A DNA stretch of 5,781 nt from a virus (IMGVR_UViG_2744054627_000015:1-5781); one strand, 5' to 3'. Numbered from the stretch's first letter, positions 1-5,781 are shown. The notes: generated from the letters alone by a model not told the origin. Program-made: numbers and translations.

Positions 1-1062
1 TTCTCCCAAACCAAGGTATGCGAGAAGACCTGCTACATCCTTTCCACTCAAATGAGTCAGCGTATTGTCCAGCGGTTGTTTACCTGCCAGCGCATTAAGC
101 ATTGTCGTGGCAAAGTTCGGATCATTCCCCAGTGCCGCCGCCAGTTCGTTCAGTGTATCCAGTGCCGCAGGTGCAGAACCCACCATTGCCGCAATCGCCG
201 ATTTCACAAATGCCGTGGTGGCAATCTGTGTATTGTTGACCGACTGTGCCGCAGTAGGTGCTGTTGGCGTTCCGGTGAGTGCCGGACTCGACAGCGGCGC
301 TTTCAGTGCCAGCGCATTATTAATAGTGGTACTGAATTTCGGGTCATTGTTAATGGCTGCGGCAATTTCTTTCAGTGTGTCCAGCGTGGCTGGCGCACCG
401 TTAATCAGAGCAGTAATAGCGGCCTGAACAAACTCTGTGGTCGCAATCCGAGTGGTGTTATTTCCTGCTGCAGGCGTCGGCGCTTTTGGTTCTCCGGTAA
501 ATGTCGGATTATGTTTCTGCGCATACTGGGTATGAGGATCTTGTGCGGCAATGTGGTTTCTCATCTGGTCATCCACATACAGCTTTAATTCCAGGACTTT
601 ATCATCCACGTATTTACGGGTTGCCAGCACTACAGCAGGGTCGATTTTCAGGGTGATATTGTCCGTACTGCTGGTAATCAGCACCATGCGCACGGTCTGG
701 GTGCGCCCGCTGCCTTCAGCCAGTTGCGGCTTATAGCTTTCCGGGCAGTTGCCCACGGCAATCAATGCCCCGGACTCATCAAACAGGCCCACTTCACGTA
801 TCCACCAACCGCCCTCGTTTTCAGGGATCACCTGTTCAGCAATAATCTGGCTGCTGTTCTGCGGGTCGATATAAAGCATATTCAGCGCAGCCCGGCGTTT
901 CTCATTTACCAGTGCCGTCTGCTTTGCGTCCGGCGTTGGCAATACTCCGCCGCCATCGCCCACCGCCATATGGGTAATTTTTAGCGGCACACCGAGCGCG
1001 GCGGCGCTGGCAAGTTTCGCCGCGCCAATATCCGTCAGCAGGGTATAAAATTTTGTGCTCAT
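1..1062 (-). CDS. H: Phage tail fibre protein (P2 gpH-like), N-terminal 354 codons; the gene continues past the window start
   Basis: Minus-strand ATG at 1062..1060 overlaps the gene I stop (ATGA). Translation MSTKFYTLLTDIGAAKLASAAALGVPLKITHMAVGDGGGVLPTPDAKQTALVNE... resembles the conserved N-terminal domain of P2-family tail fibres as recalled. The frame stays open to position 1. It is absent from the ORF track only because no stop codon falls inside the window. Confidence 0.88.
   Translation of the reverse strand, partial: MSTKFYTLLTDIGAAKLASAAALGVPLKITHMAVGDGGGVLPTPDAKQTALVNEKRRAALNMLYIDPQNSSQIIAEQVIPENEGGWWIREVGLFDESGALIAVGNCPESYKPQLAEGSGRTQTVRMVLITSSTDNITLKIDPAVVLATRKYVDDKVLELKLYVDDQMRNHIAAQDPHTQYAQKHNPTFTGEPKAPTPAAGNNTTRIATTEFVQAAITALINGAPATLDTLKEIAAAINNDPKFSTTINNALALKAPLSSPALTGTPTAPTAAQSVNNTQIATTAFVKSAIAAMVGSAPAALDTLNELAAALGNDPNFATTMLNALAGKQPLDNTLTHLSGKDVAGLLAYLGLGE
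70..462 (-). repeat. Diverged tandem duplication inside tail-fibre gene H (two units of about 170 nt, 220 nt apart)
   Basis: Protein units at residues 201-257 and 276-331 align (NNTTRIATTEFVQAAITALINGAPATLDTLKEIAAAINNDPKFSTTINNALALKAPL against NNTQIATTAFVKSAIAAMVGSAPAALDTLNELAAALGNDPNFATTMLNALAGKQPL). At DNA level, 308-400 and 88-180 share runs such as ccagcgcatta. Confidence 0.6.
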
Positions 1063-1663
1063 GGATTCACTCTCATTGTGTCAATAACATGGACCGCCCC
1101 GCCTTCATGCGCGGTGCCACCGGAAATAATCGTTTCGTTGATATACGGATAGATCGTGATTTCTTCGCCAAGATAGCTGGCGGCTCCCACCCAATGCGGG
1201 CCGCTGGTCTGCAGATTGATGGACATGCCGATCATGTGGCGGCTACATGGTTTGGCATCGCTTATCAGTCGCTCAAGTTCCAGATAGGTATCTTCAGTGA
1301 TGCCCTGGTCCTGCACGCCGATATCTAGGCGAAACGTGCCCGCTGCCTCTCCGGTCTGCCACCACTCAATAATGCGGATCAGAAAGCCGAACGGCTCCAC
1401 CACCCGCCGCACGGCACTGGTGGTCCCTTTATGCTGATGAATATAAAAAGCATCCTTCACCACCTGGCGCTTGACGCTTTCTGTCCAGCCCTCGTCCCAG
1501 CGATCCACAGAGAACGCCCAGGCGAGATAAGGCAGGAAACTGACCGGACAGGTTGCCGGATTCCACAAGTCACGAAGCGGCACCTGCAGATCAGAATCCC
1601 GCTGCAGGTTTGCGCCAGTCGGCGCTCCAGTGGTGTTGAACCCGGTGGCAGCAGACTATTCAT
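1059..1663 (-). CDS. I: Baseplate assembly protein (P2 gpI-like) with an apparent 1-nt frameshift near 1598-1600; the intact body is the 174-codon frame 1059..1583
   Basis: Body frame (…LRDLWNPATCPVSFLPYLAWAFSVDRWDEGW…) resembles P2 gpI as recalled. The ATG at 1663 has a strong GGAGG (1673..1669, 5-nt spacer), sits 5 nt before the J stop, and encodes a gpI-like N-terminus (MNSLLPPGSTPLERRLAQTCSG), but in a different frame from the body. One extra C in the CCC run at 1598-1600 (G on the coding strand) would join the two. The stop overlaps the H start (ATGA). Confidence 0.72.
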
Positions 1664-2564
1664 CCGTTCCTCCGTTGGTTACGCTCCACTGCGTACATGA
1701 TGCCGCCTGTGTTTTGTTCAGGACCACATCCGCCAGAGGAGAAGCCAGCTCCACACGCTGCACACCCTCAACATGCAGGGCGGCAAAGATGGCGCTACGG
1801 CGAATATCCCGACCAAGACGCGTCTGACTGGCGATGTACTTCTGCAGGCTGGCTTTTGCCGCTGCCATTACCGGCTCTGCTTCCGGTCCCGGATAAAGAA
1901 AAATGGTGGCTTCCACGCGATACGGGATGATTTCTGCGCTGCGAACCGTAAGACGGTCAGCCACCGGGCGGACGTTCTCACTGTTCAGAGCTTTTCCCAC
2001 CACGTCCAGCAGGTCTTTTTCTGCAGTTCCATCGCCTTCGCGGCTAAGGACAGTCAGCACCACCTCTGCAGGTGCCGGGCTGGTTGCACTGGCATCCGCC
2101 ACGCGACCGTCGGCGCTTCGGGCATGAAATTCATAAGCTGCAGTTGGCCCCGCGACTGAAAGCCCTTCAAAGGCTGCAGGCACACGCAGGCGTAACGCTT
2201 CATCGCTTTCCATCACAGCTGCAACGGGCGGCACAGCGTCATTATCAGCAGGCGTCACCGTCAGGCGTTTCACGTTGTAGTTGGCAGCGAGCTGGTCAAG
2301 ATCGCCGCCCATCGCGTAAGCCACCATCACCGCCTGCGCGGCTTCGTTAATGCGCTGGCGCAGAAGCAACTCACGGTAAGCGTTCTCCTGCAACAATTTG
2401 GTGACGGGTTCAGATTCCAGTTCCAGCGTACGCATCACAGCTTCCTGCTCATCTTTCGGATGGAGCGCCACAAATTCTGCCTTACGTTCTGCAAACAGCG
2501 TTTCAAAGTCCGGCACATCCACAATCTGCGGTGCAGGCAACTGCGAAAGGTCAATCACTGCCAT
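1656..2564 (-). CDS. J: Baseplate assembly protein (P2 gpJ-like), 302 aa
   Basis: ORF-track frame 1656..2603 trimmed to the ATG at 2564, which is preceded by AGGAG (2575..2571, 6-nt spacer). N-terminus MAVIDLSQLPAPQIVDVPDFETLFAERKAEF is gpJ-like, and the length matches the 302 aa I recall for P2 gpJ. The start overlaps the 3' end of W by 14 nt. Confidence 0.9.
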   Translation of the reverse strand: MAVIDLSQLPAPQIVDVPDFETLFAERKAEFVALHPKDEQEAVMRTLELESEPVTKLLQENAYRELLLRQRINEAAQAVMVAYAMGGDLDQLAANYNVKRLTVTPADNDAVPPVAAVMESDEALRLRVPAAFEGLSVAGPTAAYEFHARSADGRVADASATSPAPAEVVLTVLSREGDGTAEKDLLDVVGKALNSENVRPVADRLTVRSAEIIPYRVEATIFLYPGPEAEPVMAAAKASLQKYIASQTRLGRDIRRSAIFAALHVEGVQRVELASPLADVVLNKTQAASCTQWSVTNGGTDE

Positions 2565-2910
2565 TCTCGGCTCCTGTTGATACGGAAAGGGAAACAGGCA
2601 CACCGTTATTACGCTGTCCGGTCAGTTCCACCACCATAGAACCGTCAAAATTGCTGTTGATGGTGATGGATTCCAGCGTCAGCCGAGGCTCCCAGCGACT
2701 CAGCGCCACATACACCGCCGACATAATCTGCAGGCGTAACGCCGGATTTTGTGGCTGGTCTATCAGCGCCGACAGCAGGGAACCATATTCACGACGGGCA
2801 ATGCGGCTACCCTGCGGCGTCAGCAGAATATCCCGCACCGACTGGCGCAGATGGTCAATATCAGTAATGGCTTTACCGCTGGTATTGTTCATCCCGATAT
2901 AAAGCGTCAT
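2551..2910 (-). CDS. W: Baseplate protein (P2 gpW-like), 119 aa
   Basis: Translation MTLYIGMNNTSGKAITDIDHLRQSVRDILLTPQGSRIARREYGSLLSALIDQPQNP... resembles P2 gpW as recalled. GGAGG (2921..2917) lies 6 nt upstream of the ATG at 2910. The ATG overlaps the V stop (ATGA). Confidence 0.9.
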   Translation of the reverse strand: MTLYIGMNNTSGKAITDIDHLRQSVRDILLTPQGSRIARREYGSLLSALIDQPQNPALRLQIMSAVYVALSRWEPRLTLESITINSNFDGSMVVELTGQRNNGVPVSLSVSTGAENGSD

Positions 2911-3485
2911 ACCGGGCCTCCGGTGGTGTCGCCACCTTTCTGGACGCCAGTATGCTGATGCGCATCAACCACGATCCCGTTAGAACTCATCGCACCGCCG
3001 CCCTGGGTAACGCCACCATTGATCACCACTTCGCTGTTAATACGTGCGCGGTCAGCCTCCAGTACAAACTCACTGGTTTTCAGGGTGATGTTGTCGACAG
3101 CCTCAATGACCATTGATTTGATGCCCCTGACATACCAGCGCCCGGTGGCGGGTTCGTATTCAAACCAGCCACCGTCAGGATATTCTGTCACGCAGGCGTC
3201 CGCCGACGTCGACGGCGGCGCGAACTGATTCGAATAGACAGCGGGCAACGCAAAGGCGGTTTCCAGATTGCCACCCAGACTCAGCAGCACCACCTGCTCA
3301 CCTTCCGATGGTTTCCACCATGTGCGGGCATTACCCGCACGCAGCGTCAGCCAGCTGATCCAGTTGGTTTCAAGGTCGCCTGTTTTCACCCGGCAAAGCC
3401 AGTTCTCCCGGTCCACTTCGGTGACTACACCAGTGCGAATCAGGTTGGTGATAAGGCGCATGATTTCGGTTAAATGTGCGTTCAT
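2907..3485 (-). CDS. V: Baseplate spike / tail protein (P2 gpV-like), 192 aa from the ATG at 3485
   Basis: Translation MNAHLTEIMRLITNLIRTGVVTEVD...KGGDTTGGPV aligns with the recalled gpV N-terminus (MNTLANIQELARALRNMIRTG...) and the C-terminal GG-rich tail. The ORF-track start at 3542 adds 19 residues with no counterpart in gpV, so the internal ATG is preferred. None of the candidate starts has a convincing Shine-Dalgarno. Confidence 0.82.
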   Translation of the reverse strand: MNAHLTEIMRLITNLIRTGVVTEVDRENWLCRVKTGDLETNWISWLTLRAGNARTWWKPSEGEQVVLLSLGGNLETAFALPAVYSNQFAPPSTSADACVTEYPDGGWFEYEPATGRWYVRGIKSMVIEAVDNITLKTSEFVLEADRARINSEVVINGGVTQGGGAMSSNGIVVDAHQHTGVQKGGDTTGGPV

Positions 3486-3530
3486 GAGAAAAACTAACCG
3501 CCATTGCAAACGCAATCGAGTAGATAGGAA

Positions 3531-3548
3531 TGTTTGATTCATGGCACA
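3531..3548 (-). promoter_or_regulatory. Candidate Ogr/Delta-type late-activator box (TGT-N12-ACA) upstream of V
   Basis: Minus strand reads TGTgccatgaatcaaACA, centred about 54 nt upstream of the V ATG. P2-family late promoters carry a TGT-N12-ACA dyad at about -55 from the transcription start, and V is the first gene of a late operon in P2. It is a single occurrence that could arise by chance, and the spacing to the ATG is tight. Confidence 0.3.
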
Positions 3549-3576
3549 ATACGTTGCTTACTTTTAAGGATATAAA

Positions 3577-4021
3577 ATGAAAGACAATTTAAATCTTCTT
3601 ATAAAAAATTAATAAGAAAGGCATTTCCTGAATTTAGCAATAAGGTAACATGGACTTTACTCACTGCAGGGATCGGTATTCTTGCACTACCTGCACCCAC
3701 ATATTTATTATTCGTAAACCTTATAATTGATTTTTACAACAAAACAACTAATTCAGAAATAAGCTTCTTAAGATTGATAGCATTACACCAAGTAGTGGGG
3801 TTGCTTTAACTTTAATTCTATCCGGGCTAGTCTTTCACCTATTAATAAAAGTCCCCCATATATACCAAGAAATTCTAAAAGAGAATAACCAAAAAGAAAT
3901 ACAGGAAAGAAAAAGAGTAGCAGACGTTAAACTTTATGAGGCATTTATTGATATTCTACCAACAACCTCGTTATCAATTGAATTCTTAAAAGACCATAAT
4001 TTTGAAAACTCCCTATCATGA
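3577..4021 (+). pseudogene. Disrupted ORF for a predicted two-transmembrane protein (about 148 aa if two single-base homopolymer deletions are repaired)
   Basis: ATG at 3577 with AAGGA (3566-3570, 6-nt spacer) opens an 11-codon ORF in frame 1. Frame 0 is then stop-free across 3576..3806 and frame 2 across 3752..4018, with no usable start codon in either. Adding one A to the A6 run (3603-3608) and one G to the G4 run (3797-3800) yields a continuous protein with two hydrophobic helices and a charged C-terminal tail. Confidence 0.4.
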
Positions 4022-4057
4022 TAATAATACAAAAGATATTAGTAATCTTGAATACGG

Positions 4058-4336
4058 GTGGGTCATGCAGATCAACATTTTCATGACAATGAAATTGAAG
4101 ATAAAGCCACTCATCTTTACAGTGAAATAATAAAGTTTAATTATTTTCTCGCTTATAAATCGCACAATATCAATAACTATATGTTTAGCATGCTTACTGA
4201 CAGAGATCGAGCTATGGTGATGGAATTACTACCTCAAACAAAGGAAAATATAAAAATAGCCAATGAGTGGAGTTCTACAATTCATCAGCTTTACTGTGAC
4301 TTTATCTCCACATGTAGGAATAACTTAGCCATATAA
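4058..4336 (+). CDS. Hypothetical protein (92 aa from GTG at 4058, or 51 aa from ATG at 4181); island cargo of unknown function
   Basis: ORF-track frame, same frame as the upstream disrupted ORF and separated from it by a cluster of stops at 4019-4051. It is Asn/Ile/Lys-rich, as expected for AT-rich DNA. No good RBS precedes either start. It ends at TAA 4334-4336, 14 nt from the convergent S stop. Confidence 0.4.
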   Translation: MGHADQHFHDNEIEDKATHLYSEIIKFNYFLAYKSHNINNYMFSMLTDRDRAMVMELLPQTKENIKIANEWSSTIHQLYCDFISTCRNNLAI

Positions 4337-4350
4337 ATCATATGCTGTAG

Positions 4351-4596
4351 TTAATTAAGACAAGTAGCGAAAAAAATATCACGAGTTATCATTTCCGCTT
4401 CGTCGTTAACACCCAAAAGGCGACGCTCTGCGTAACGGACCTCCGGCCCTTTGCGACTGACGCGATCGCGCAGGCCGTAATGGTGAACACGGGCAATGCG
4501 CTGCACCTTACCTTCAAACTGCACGCTGGCAGAATCGGCGCTGGCGGCAGTTTTCAGATATTTTGTGGTGCGTAGCTTTGCAAACATCTGACGTTT
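4351..4596 (-). pseudogene. S: 3' fragment of the tail-completion / virion-morphogenesis gene (P2 gpS-like), truncated at its 5' side by the IS
   Basis: Translation ...KRQMFAKLRTTKYLKTAASADSASVQFEGKVQRIARVHHYGLRDRVSRKGPEVRYAERRLLG... fits my recollection of the gpS / Mu gpG family (MFxKLRTxxYLK ... IARVHH-GLRDR). An in-frame stop at 4621-4623 lies inside the IS end. Only about 80 of the expected 150 codons are present. Confidence 0.55.
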
Positions 4597-4649
4597 TGTA
4601 ATGACCCACTGAAATCCTGCTCAGGTCATAATGAGTGGAGATCACAGAC

Positions 4650-5003
4650 ATGAGCATCACGATGGACGAAGAAATCAAACGTTGGACGGCCAAGCGCAAG
4701 TCCGCCTTGGTCATGGAAATCATTCAGGGCAAGACCACCGTCGCCGAAGCGGCTCGAGCCTTTGATTTGCCGCCCTCCGAGATTGAAGAATGGGTAGATG
4801 ACGCCAAACGGGGCATGGAAAACGCCTTACGGGCCAAGCCACTGGATATTCGCGAGCAGTACGAGAAGCAGCTCAAGGAACTCCAGGAAGCTTATGGCGA
4901 GGCCATGCTGGAGTTACGCGCCAGAAAAAGCTGGCCTCCCTGCTGGGCGAGGACGACAGATAGTCGCCGATGTTCAGCAGGGATTACGCGCAGAAGGTAT
5001 TGA
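4650..5003 (+). CDS. IS3-family transposase OrfA (HTH DNA-binding protein), with an aberrant C-terminal extension in this copy
   Basis: ATG at 4650 preceded by GGAG (4637-4640, 9-nt spacer). Translation MSITMDEEIKRWTAKRKSALVMEIIQGKTTVAEAARAFDLPPSEIEEWVDD...EAMLELRARK parallels IS2 OrfA (...[23 protein letters not shown]). The canonical OrfA tail KKLASLLGEDDR* is in the -1 frame after the A-run at 4925-4929. The ORF-track GTG start at 4635 was not used. Confidence 0.8.
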   Translation: MSITMDEEIKRWTAKRKSALVMEIIQGKTTVAEAARAFDLPPSEIEEWVDDAKRGMENALRAKPLDIREQYEKQLKELQEAYGEAMLELRARKSWPPCWARTTDSRRCSAGITRRRY

Positions 5004-5781
5004 TGTCTCCGTCAGCAAGCTCTGCCGCTGGTTTGGCCTGCCGCGTCGTAGTTGGTACTACCGCAGCGTCAAGGCCGCGCCCAAGCTTCAGGAGCATCTG
5101 GTCACCCCGATCAAAAACATGATTGAGGAGAACCCATCGTTCGGTTACCGGACGGTTGCAGCCCTGTTGGGGTTCAACAAGAACACGGTACAGCGCATCT
5201 TCCAGCTCAAGGGCTGGCAAGTTCGCAAGCGTCCGGTTGGGTTTCGCCCCCGGATCCAGGCCCTGCCTTCGGTGGCCTCAGCGCCCAACCAACGCTGGGC
5301 GACGGACCTATGCCGGATCTGGGCTGGTCGCGATGGCTGGTGTTCCTTGGCGCTGGTGATTGATTGCCATACCCGTGAACTACTGGGATGGCATCTCTCG
5401 CGCAGTGGTAAATCGAAAACGGCCGAGGCAGCGCTGGAGCAAGCCTTAATTGCTCGCTTCGGCAGCTTGGGACGAGTTGCATCGCCGTTTTTGTTACGTA
5501 GCGACAATGGGTTGGTGTTTACCAGCCGCAACTACACAGCACTGGTGAAGAGCTATGGGTTGCAGCAGGAGTTCATCACGCCGTACACGCCGGAACAAAA
5601 CGGCATGGTCGAGCGGGTGATCAGAACGCTCAAGGAGCAGTGTGCCCATCGGCAGAGGTTCGAGACCTTGCAGCATGCCAGTCGGGTGATTGGCGACTGG
5701 ATCCAGTTTTACAACCAGAAGCGTCCTCACCAGGCGCTAAAGATGAAAACACCGGCGCAGGCCTATGCCGAAGCCGCTTAG
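4927..5781 (+). CDS. IS3-family transposase OrfB (DDE catalytic domain); here in the +1 frame relative to OrfA
   Basis: DDE(K) signature: D at 5305-5307 (WATDL), D at 5503-5505 (RSDNG), E at 5611-5613 followed by K seven residues later (ERVIRTLK). No ATG near the 5' end, as is typical when OrfB is made only as an OrfAB fusion. The frame is open from 4798, but the part upstream of the A-run overlaps OrfA and is not considered coding. Stop TAG at 5779-5781. Confidence 0.82.
   Translation, partial: KAGLPAGRGRQIVADVQQGLRAEGIDVSVSKLCRWFGLPRRSWYYRSVKAAPKLQEHLVTPIKNMIEENPSFGYRTVAALLGFNKNTVQRIFQLKGWQVRKRPVGFRPRIQALPSVASAPNQRWATDLCRIWAGRDGWCSLALVIDCHTRELLGWHLSRSGKSKTAEAALEQALIARFGSLGRVASPFLLRSDNGLVFTSRNYTALVKSYGLQQEFITPYTPEQNGMVERVIRTLKEQCAHRQRFETLQHASRVIGDWIQFYNQKRPHQALKMKTPAQAYAEAA

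Follow-up and report, generated by a model that had tools for sequence, protein, structure and literature searches.

The AT-rich island between genes V and S of a P2-like prophage, in a window of 5,781 nt (the whole stretch of viral DNA that was analysed, IMGVR_UViG_2744054627_000015:1-5781), almost certainly holds, as judged by alignment with intact orthologues, a single plus-strand gene of 253 codons plus a stop. The four frameshifts that break this gene were very probably introduced as homopolymer miscalls of the draft assembly, the gene being intact in the strain. As an overall explanation we incline, with modest confidence, to an intact cargo gene of the orf30 slot that would encode a single-gene anti-phage membrane factor.

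Gene model and origin of the frameshifts

The window corresponds to positions 2-5782 of the 8,248-bp draft contig LSBR01000054.1 (GCA_001641855.1). On the basis of the ORF listing and of annotated genomes, it was assigned to the late region of a P2-like prophage, encoded on the minus strand. The composition profile showed a drop in GC from about 0.55-0.60 to about 0.30 exactly across the island, and gene S is interrupted at 4596/4597 by an IS3-family element. The coordinates of all features are detailed in Table 1. The IS3-family element has the usual orfA/orfB overlap (4635-5003 and 4798-5781) and is 100% identical over window positions 4635-5781 to an E. coli plasmid copy (H19), with zero homopolymer differences there. 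It is followed, at 5783-8248 of LSBR01000054.1, by a gene for an mcr-3-like phosphoethanolamine transferase and by dgkA, a cassette that matches mcr-3.2x plasmids at 99.7% identity; the IS end (TGTAATGACCCAC) is present once more near position 8124 of the same contig. Provided that the contig is not chimeric, this colistin-resistance cassette (mcr-3) sits inside the prophage tail gene S.

Table 1. Features of the window, with positions counted from its first nucleotide
Feature	Position	Strand	Basis
Tail-fibre gene H, partial	1-1062	-	
Gene I	1059-1663	-	
Gene J	1656-2564	-	
Gene W	2551-2910	-	
Baseplate gene V, left anchor of the cargo slot	2907-3485	-	
AT-rich island, 31% GC	3543-4350		
Putative ribosome-binding site AAGGA, 6 nt 5' of the ATG	3566-3570	+	Sequence reading
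Predicted whole gene, 253 codons + stop (intact WP_058101143.1), here in five frame segments	3577-4336	+	Orthologue alignment
A6 run, A7 in intact genes, first frameshift	3603-3608	+	Alignment
Hydrophobic segment 1, residues ~27-53, with central P-A-P, after FPEFSNKVTW	3654-3734	+	Kyte-Doolittle, Hessa scale, alignment
Single C, CC in intact genes, true second frameshift	3764	+	Alignment
Hydrophobic segment 2, residues ~73-93	3791-3853	+	Hydropathy, AF2 model
Conserved C-terminal domain, residues ~100-253	3872-4333	+	Alignment, AF2 model
CCC, CC in intact genes, third frameshift (+1)	4011-4013	+	Alignment
GGG, GGGG in intact genes, fourth frameshift	4060-4062	+	Alignment
Tail-completion gene S, 3' remnant, right anchor of the cargo slot	4351-4596	-	
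IS3-family element	4597 to window end		

Three tiled stop-free tracks were found on the plus strand of the island, 3576-3806 (77 codons), 3752-4018 (89 codons) and 4052-4333 (94 codons), and the longest stop-free run on its minus strand was 69 codons. From the base composition of the island, the probability of a stop is 0.078 per codon, i.e. one per 12.8 codons, and a run of at least 89 codons starting at a given codon has P ~7e-4; 2.8% of island shuffles yielded a run of this length in any plus frame. An earlier, sequence-only reading had described the first two tracks, correctly for the first and with 90 codons for the second, and its estimates of one stop about every 12 codons and a chance of 4 in 10,000 were roughly right. 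The third track, which it overlooked, greatly strengthens the argument for a gene.

A megablast search with positions 3480-4400 gave matches in 12 of 5,426 complete E. coli genomes, with identities of 98.6-99.4%, all of them spanning 925 nt versus 921 nt in the window. In ten of the 12, the island is annotated as one 762-bp CDS that encodes a 253-aa 'hypothetical protein' (WP_058101143.1, WP_096148416.1) opposite V and S. The two others, the porcine strains ETEC4089 and ETEC1702, carry an IS1 inside the gene, which is annotated there as two hypothetical proteins (interrupted gene at 1599-3137 of the ETEC4089 locus, L003); this is a genuine inactivation of the gene. With respect to the intact reference copy of a complete E. 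coli genome (L001), the coding sequence in the window differs solely by four single-base run-length changes.

These alignments agree with the RBS-linked ATG at 3577 that had been proposed as the start, since the same ATG is annotated in the RefSeq orthologues and AAGGA precedes it, and with the addition of one A to the first run. The second repair that had been proposed, one G at 3797-3800, did not hold, GGGG being identical in the intact genes; the real shift is the missing C at 3764, 33 nt upstream and within the overlap of both open frames. Because of this displacement, residues 64-74 of the reconstruction were misread at 10 positions, as the hydrophobic FLRLIALHQVV versus the true, polar LLKIDSITPSS. 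It had also been argued that the G repair makes the second helix continuous; the true residues there form a polar loop, LLKIDSITPSSG, and the continuity was therefore an out-of-frame coincidence. The apparent stop at 4019-4021 is due to the extra C of the third frameshift, and this C, together with the missing G of the fourth, implies that the gene continues to its stop codon at 4334-4336. The fourth shift restores the frame of an annotated 92-aa fragment, OAF52694.1 (ORF 4058-4336).

A coding gene behind the broken frames, as had been suspected, is thus borne out, and the particular product that had been reconstructed from it is refuted by the different frame organisation of the intact homologues. 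That product, a 148-aa protein with two transmembrane helices and a charged tail, ending at 4021 and obtained by adding A at 3603-3608 and G at 3797-3800, has practically no probability left: its start codon and its A-run repair are correct and 136 of 148 residues agree with the true sequence, but its junction and its end are seen in no homologue, all full-length family members reach about 253 aa, and both conservation and fold confidence are highest in the region past 4021.

Over 4,596 nt, the window and L001 differ by 1 substitution and 7 single-base indels, all of the latter in mononucleotide runs: one in gene I, one in the V leader, four in the 253-codon gene and one at the 3' end of S. 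In gene I, AA instead of AAA at 1594-1595 gives rise to a 68-aa N-terminal and a 174-aa C-terminal ORF; A5 instead of A6 is read at 3489-3493, 4 nt upstream of the gpV start codon, and A7 instead of A8 at 4370-4376, in the last gpS codons, where the apparent stop is moved from 4355 to 4351. Further along LSBR01000054.1, the mcr-3-like gene is split into 277 + 176 aa and dgkA into 53 + 66 aa, and this part showed 1 substitution and 6 run-length indels against an intact reference plasmid. In total, the contig has 13 homopolymer indels versus 2 substitutions over three unrelated elements (prophage, mcr-3 and dgkA). When the miscalls were pooled by run length over 7.07 kb of reference, the rate climbed steeply, from 0 of 3786 single bases, 3 of 1022 runs of two, 1 of 277 runs of three, 1 of 62 runs of four and 2 of 22 runs of five to 3 of 5 runs of six, 2 of 2 runs of seven and the only run of eight (1/1); in the compared sequence of the contig, 6 of 8 runs of at least 6 nt were miscalled.

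Since the 13:2 pattern of indels to substitutions spans three unrelated elements, the frameshifts are best read as assembly errors, and the gene is therefore probably intact in the strain. A genuine pseudogene would need four real slippage mutations, accumulated during the decay of a prophage that the IS3/mcr-3 insertion in S had already inactivated. We consider it improbable, even if the prophage is defective (S is cut at 4596/4597 if the contig is correctly assembled), the gene has truly been lost elsewhere, by IS1 in the two ETEC genomes, and 3 of the 13 indels fall in runs of only 2 nt, where homopolymer errors are less typical. The excess of indels extends across the whole contig, lesions of the same type affect mcr-3 and dgkA, which belong to a different element matching intact plasmids at 99.7%, long runs are hit at a rate that single bases do not approach, and natural decay would be expected to add substitutions and longer deletions too. 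A phase-variable gene, with the A7 tract of codons 9-11 as an on/off slippage switch, is more improbable still. It would account for a 7-nt poly-A near the 5' end that the window reads as A6, but a tract of 7 nt is short for a contingency locus, A7 is present in both fully intact complete-genome copies that were aligned (L001 and L002), the remaining matches have the intact length of 925 nt or, in the two ETEC genomes, the IS1 insertion, and A6 is just one of 13 similar miscalls in the contig. Programmed frameshifting was rejected together with phase variation: the intact complete-genome copies are read in a single frame and the same lesions occur in unrelated genes of the contig.

Read as miscalls, the lesions would make this a case of a false pseudogene, in which homopolymer errors produce tiled open frames in AT-rich DNA. 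The correct repair could be obtained only via intact orthologues, and a plausible repair that joined a helix was wrong. A consensus scan around the gene gave 3 promoter-like sites versus 4.7 expected, and no terminator.

Cargo slot between genes V and S

The gene is flanked by V and S, which lie on the other strand, in the E. coli, Klebsiella, P0019 (54% identity) and P0031 (45%) assemblies, and a member from Erwinia billingiae (P0025, 49%) adjoins gpV in a prophage remnant without gpS. This slot between gpS and gpV, with the gene opposite the late genes, is the location of orf30 in P2. The gene stands alone in the slot at three loci, and one extra gene is present at the P0031 locus. The extra gene, of the same strand and placed between gpV and the family member, encodes a 220-aa membrane protein (L004/L005 7263-7925) with a weak, sub-threshold match to AI-2E_transport and no match in PADLOC; its role could be that of a partner or of a second cargo. 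The length of 336 aa called for the P0031 family member looks like an over-extended start.

To describe the slot, 80 P2-like contigs of IMG/VR with gpV 94-97% identical were sampled, 78 of them usable. The S-V junction was empty (about 70 bp) in 52 of the 78 and occupied in 26, with inserts of 160-2,260 bp and about 12 unrelated kinds. The GC content is 31-35% in all but one of the inserts, most of which share the strand of the 253-codon gene; the family of this gene was carried by only 2 of the 78 contigs. Among these cargoes PADLOC identified a PARIS pair (AriA 2e-38 and AriB 2e-21, L050/L051), a fused AriAB (1e-25, L067) and an AbiU-like protein (2e-24, L042/L049); it identified none of the others, some of which are membrane proteins. 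Further inserts encode a P-loop protein of 503 aa, read from the strand of the late genes (L071/L097/L101), and, in five contigs, a multi-TM protein of 262 aa; R-x4-H-like motifs were noted in slot proteins of 304, 386 and 449 aa.

The slot between these conserved phage genes is therefore one of presence or absence, with defence systems in sister phages, and the gene is best regarded, from its composition and its distribution, as an AT-rich, horizontally acquired and optional cargo that is transcribed opposite the late operons. Hotspots of P2-like phages have been described at old/tin, Z/fun and other places 'within the tail genes' (PMC9122126, PMC13586616, 10.1101/2024.10.15.618418), and neither orf30 nor gpS or gpV is named in these papers. 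PARIS is a validated defence system of P2/P4 hotspots (PMC9122126).

Protein family, anatomy and distant relatives

In a large protein collection the family comprised 31 clusters, with identities of 45-99%, from the Enterobacterales genera Escherichia, Salmonella, Klebsiella, Enterobacter, Citrobacter, Raoultella, Lonsdalea and Erwinia. Full-length members mostly have 250-255 aa, and lengths up to about 280 and 336 aa are found where longer N-termini were called; all named members are annotated as 'hypothetical protein'. The dN/dS ratio with respect to the Klebsiella orthologue was 0.18 for the whole protein, 0.20 for residues 1-100 and 0.15 for residues 101-253, values that point to a real gene under purifying selection; in more distant pairs synonymous sites were saturated.

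The N-terminus is basic and contains the motif K-x-I-x-K-x-FPEFSNKVTW, invariant in the family alignment. Kyte-Doolittle values of at least 1.6 at residues 28-53 and 72-96 agree with the two hydrophobic helices that the sequence-only reading had placed at the start of the protein, the transmembrane calls being made from hydropathy alone. With 6 K/R residues in the N-terminus, 2 in the loop and 7 after segment 2, a two-TM inner-membrane protein with both N- and C-terminus inside is predicted; 4 of about 40 distant full-length relatives fall below the hydropathy threshold. Next come a charged linker, which varies in length, and a conserved C-terminal region with the motif (A/P)(D/N/T)(Q/H)(H/I)FH, of which F169 and H170 are invariant. 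In the AlphaFold2 model, built with the family alignment, the mean pLDDT was 79, the N-terminal 100 residues were uncertain, with about 50-65 (about 50-60 in the hydrophobic segments), and TM2 runs on as one long helix (74-127) into a helical C-terminal domain with pLDDT above 90 over most of its length. The part that had been taken for a charged cytoplasmic tail is, in this model, a linker helix into the conserved domain of about 150 aa.

With the 253-aa protein as query, nothing was found at E up to 10 in Pfam, SLATT and holin families included, or in PADLOC-DB 2.0.0, and no significant match in NCBIfam or PHROGs. A tblastn search against 50,697 phage records, P2 included, gave zero matches, a profile search of PDB sequences a single chance match (E 0.16), and Foldseek against BFVD and PDB nothing under E = 0.1. 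No description of the gene, its accessions, its sequence motif or the source genome was found in the literature. On these comparisons, the C-terminal domain of about 150 aa is placed outside any described family.

A profile-guided query for the close family retrieved 3 loci only in 185,579 species genomes, and a word-indexed protein search with the superfamily profile returned mostly the close family again. An exhaustive profile search of 1.84 billion representatives yielded 928 proteins at E <=1e-3, 187 of them at E <=1e-10. About 40 of the best 150 relatives have the full layout of 2TM plus domain, at 20-35% identity, and the rest are mostly proteins of 150-220 aa in which the C-terminal domain is preceded by one or two hydrophobic segments at the N-terminus. 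The positions conserved across this superfamily are D117 (99%), H141-D142-F143-G144, W162, E166, F169, E175 and N230, mostly an aromatic core with few polar residues (D117, H141-D142, E166, E175 and N230), among which no known catalytic signature was recognised.

When 145 members were scanned with Pfam, recognisable partners of the domain were limited to TIR (4 proteins, PF10137 in three and TIR_2/TIR in one), Schlafen AlbA_2 (1) and HNH (1). The order of the modules was mapped for the TIR and Schlafen proteins, in which they lie N-terminal to the shared domain. The fusion relatives match, in their N-terminal parts, effector profiles of Thoeris, Pycsar and CBASS and profiles of PADLOC candidate systems; when PADLOC was applied to these relatives, the TIR or SLFN parts gave matches and the shared domain did not. 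The neighbours of distant members include HigB/HTH and nucleotidyltransferase genes, a RES toxin with a NucC/PD-(D/E)xK-like protein, and an ImmA/IrrE + DUF4411 pair, near DUF3800 and relaxase. A homologue of 24% identity in a Methylophaga MAG (L025 1296-8536) is part of an array of eight orphan genes, all on one strand, among them those for a DUF6602/NucC-like nuclease and a RES-domain protein; this array may be an uncharacterised defence island.

Putative function and comparison with known systems

That the gene encodes an anti-phage defence factor is a proposition on which we are evenly balanced; we infer that a role in abortive infection or exclusion, on which the sequence-only reading had speculated, is its best reading. 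The domain partners, the slot and the neighbours of distant members speak for defence circumstantially, but all in one direction. Many abortive-infection proteins carry a common C-terminal domain behind toxic modules that can be exchanged, and because the family matches this layout the domain was read as sensor or regulator and the 2TM module as membrane effector, a division of labour that we put forward tentatively. Under the proposed mechanism, the gene would be expressed from the lysogen, as suggested by its orientation opposite the late operons, and the protein would reside in the inner membrane, its C-terminal domain being cytoplasmic and reached by the long stalk helix. The C-terminal domain would sense or regulate and the 2TM module would be the effector: on infection by another phage, the domain would release or activate the 2TM module, probably by oligomerisation through the stalk helix, and the inner membrane would be damaged, with collapse of its potential, or entry would be blocked, with protection of the lysogen population. 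The effector role would pass to a TIR, Schlafen or HNH module in distant relatives.

The gene might instead be intact and functional in another role, as a superinfection-exclusion protein that blocks DNA entry at the inner membrane, a membrane protein for lysogenic conversion or host fitness, or a toxin-like addiction module by which the prophage is stabilised. Such a role is unlikely in our judgement, yet not to be neglected: the orientation opposite the late operons is equally what expression in a lysogen would lead one to expect, P2 can dispense with Orf30, a membrane protein of this slot that is not homologous, and the 253-aa protein matches no defence family. The other identifiable cargoes of the slot are abortive-infection systems, which speaks for defence, but slot position is weak evidence for it, since several other cargoes are also unknowns. 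Against another role stands also that the C-terminal domain is common to TIR, Schlafen and HNH proteins with matches to defence-effector profiles, and the logic of a triggered effector fits this sharing better than a passive block of entry does.

For the preferred reading as a defence factor, a further step can be proposed, which we regard as possible but doubtful: the C-terminal domain would be an undescribed, widespread module (at least 928 representative clusters) for phage sensing or regulation, mounted on interchangeable killing modules, and its 2TM version a new single-gene abortive-infection system. If true, it would be a new system of this type in a P2 gpS/gpV hotspot that the main hotspot papers do not name. 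The gene is a conserved orphan whose C-terminal domain is absent from Pfam and PADLOC and yet recurs with TIR, Schlafen, HNH and TM partners; as an orphan in a cargo slot with a recurring domain, it is thus a well-defined candidate anti-phage system of one 762-bp gene.

Comparison with Orf30 of P2 (AAD03281.1) revealed the same slot and orientation, an AT-rich cargo and hydrophobic (membrane) segments, and similar sizes of 261 aa versus 253 aa for the window protein. The layout of the hydrophobic segments differs, however, and Orf30 does not have the conserved C-terminal domain. Homology was rejected (hhalign probability 0.1%, E 0.42; no match by tblastn), and Orf30 is considered, by sequence comparison, a positional analogue and not a member of the family. 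PARIS (AriA/AriB) and the AbiU-like protein occupy the same gpS-gpV slot in sister phages and are likewise AT-rich and mostly on the opposite strand, but PARIS consists of an ATPase and a TOPRIM/DUF4435 protein, and neither system shares sequence similarity with the window gene.

Membrane damage has been proposed as the mode of action of PycTM and Cap15, and the membrane-spanning version of the family would act likewise. The likeness to PycTM/PycTIR of Pycsar and to the TM/TIR effectors of CBASS is found at the level of the superfamily, in a conserved C-terminal domain combined with alternative N-terminal modules (2TM, TIR of the CAP12/Pycsar-type PF10137, Schlafen and HNH). In contrast to these systems, no cyclic-nucleotide-binding, SAVED or STING domain was detected in the window protein and no cyclase is present in the slot; the resemblance is one of logic only.

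Finally, two N-terminal membrane helices in a phage- or defence-associated protein are shared with the SLATT 2TM effectors and with class II holins. No match to Pfam SLATT_1-5 was found in the 253-aa protein (E up to 10) or in 145 relatives. Class II holins are proteins of about 70-110 aa, encoded in the lysis cassette beside the endolysin and co-transcribed late; this identity is not supported for a protein of 253 aa, encoded on the opposite strand and optional. Nor is the holin-like role that had been suggested for the short reconstruction, the gene being opposite the late operons and optional in close relatives. It lies between the baseplate and tail-completion genes, outside the lysis cassette, in which the intact reference prophage carries its own HP1-family holin and a lysozyme.
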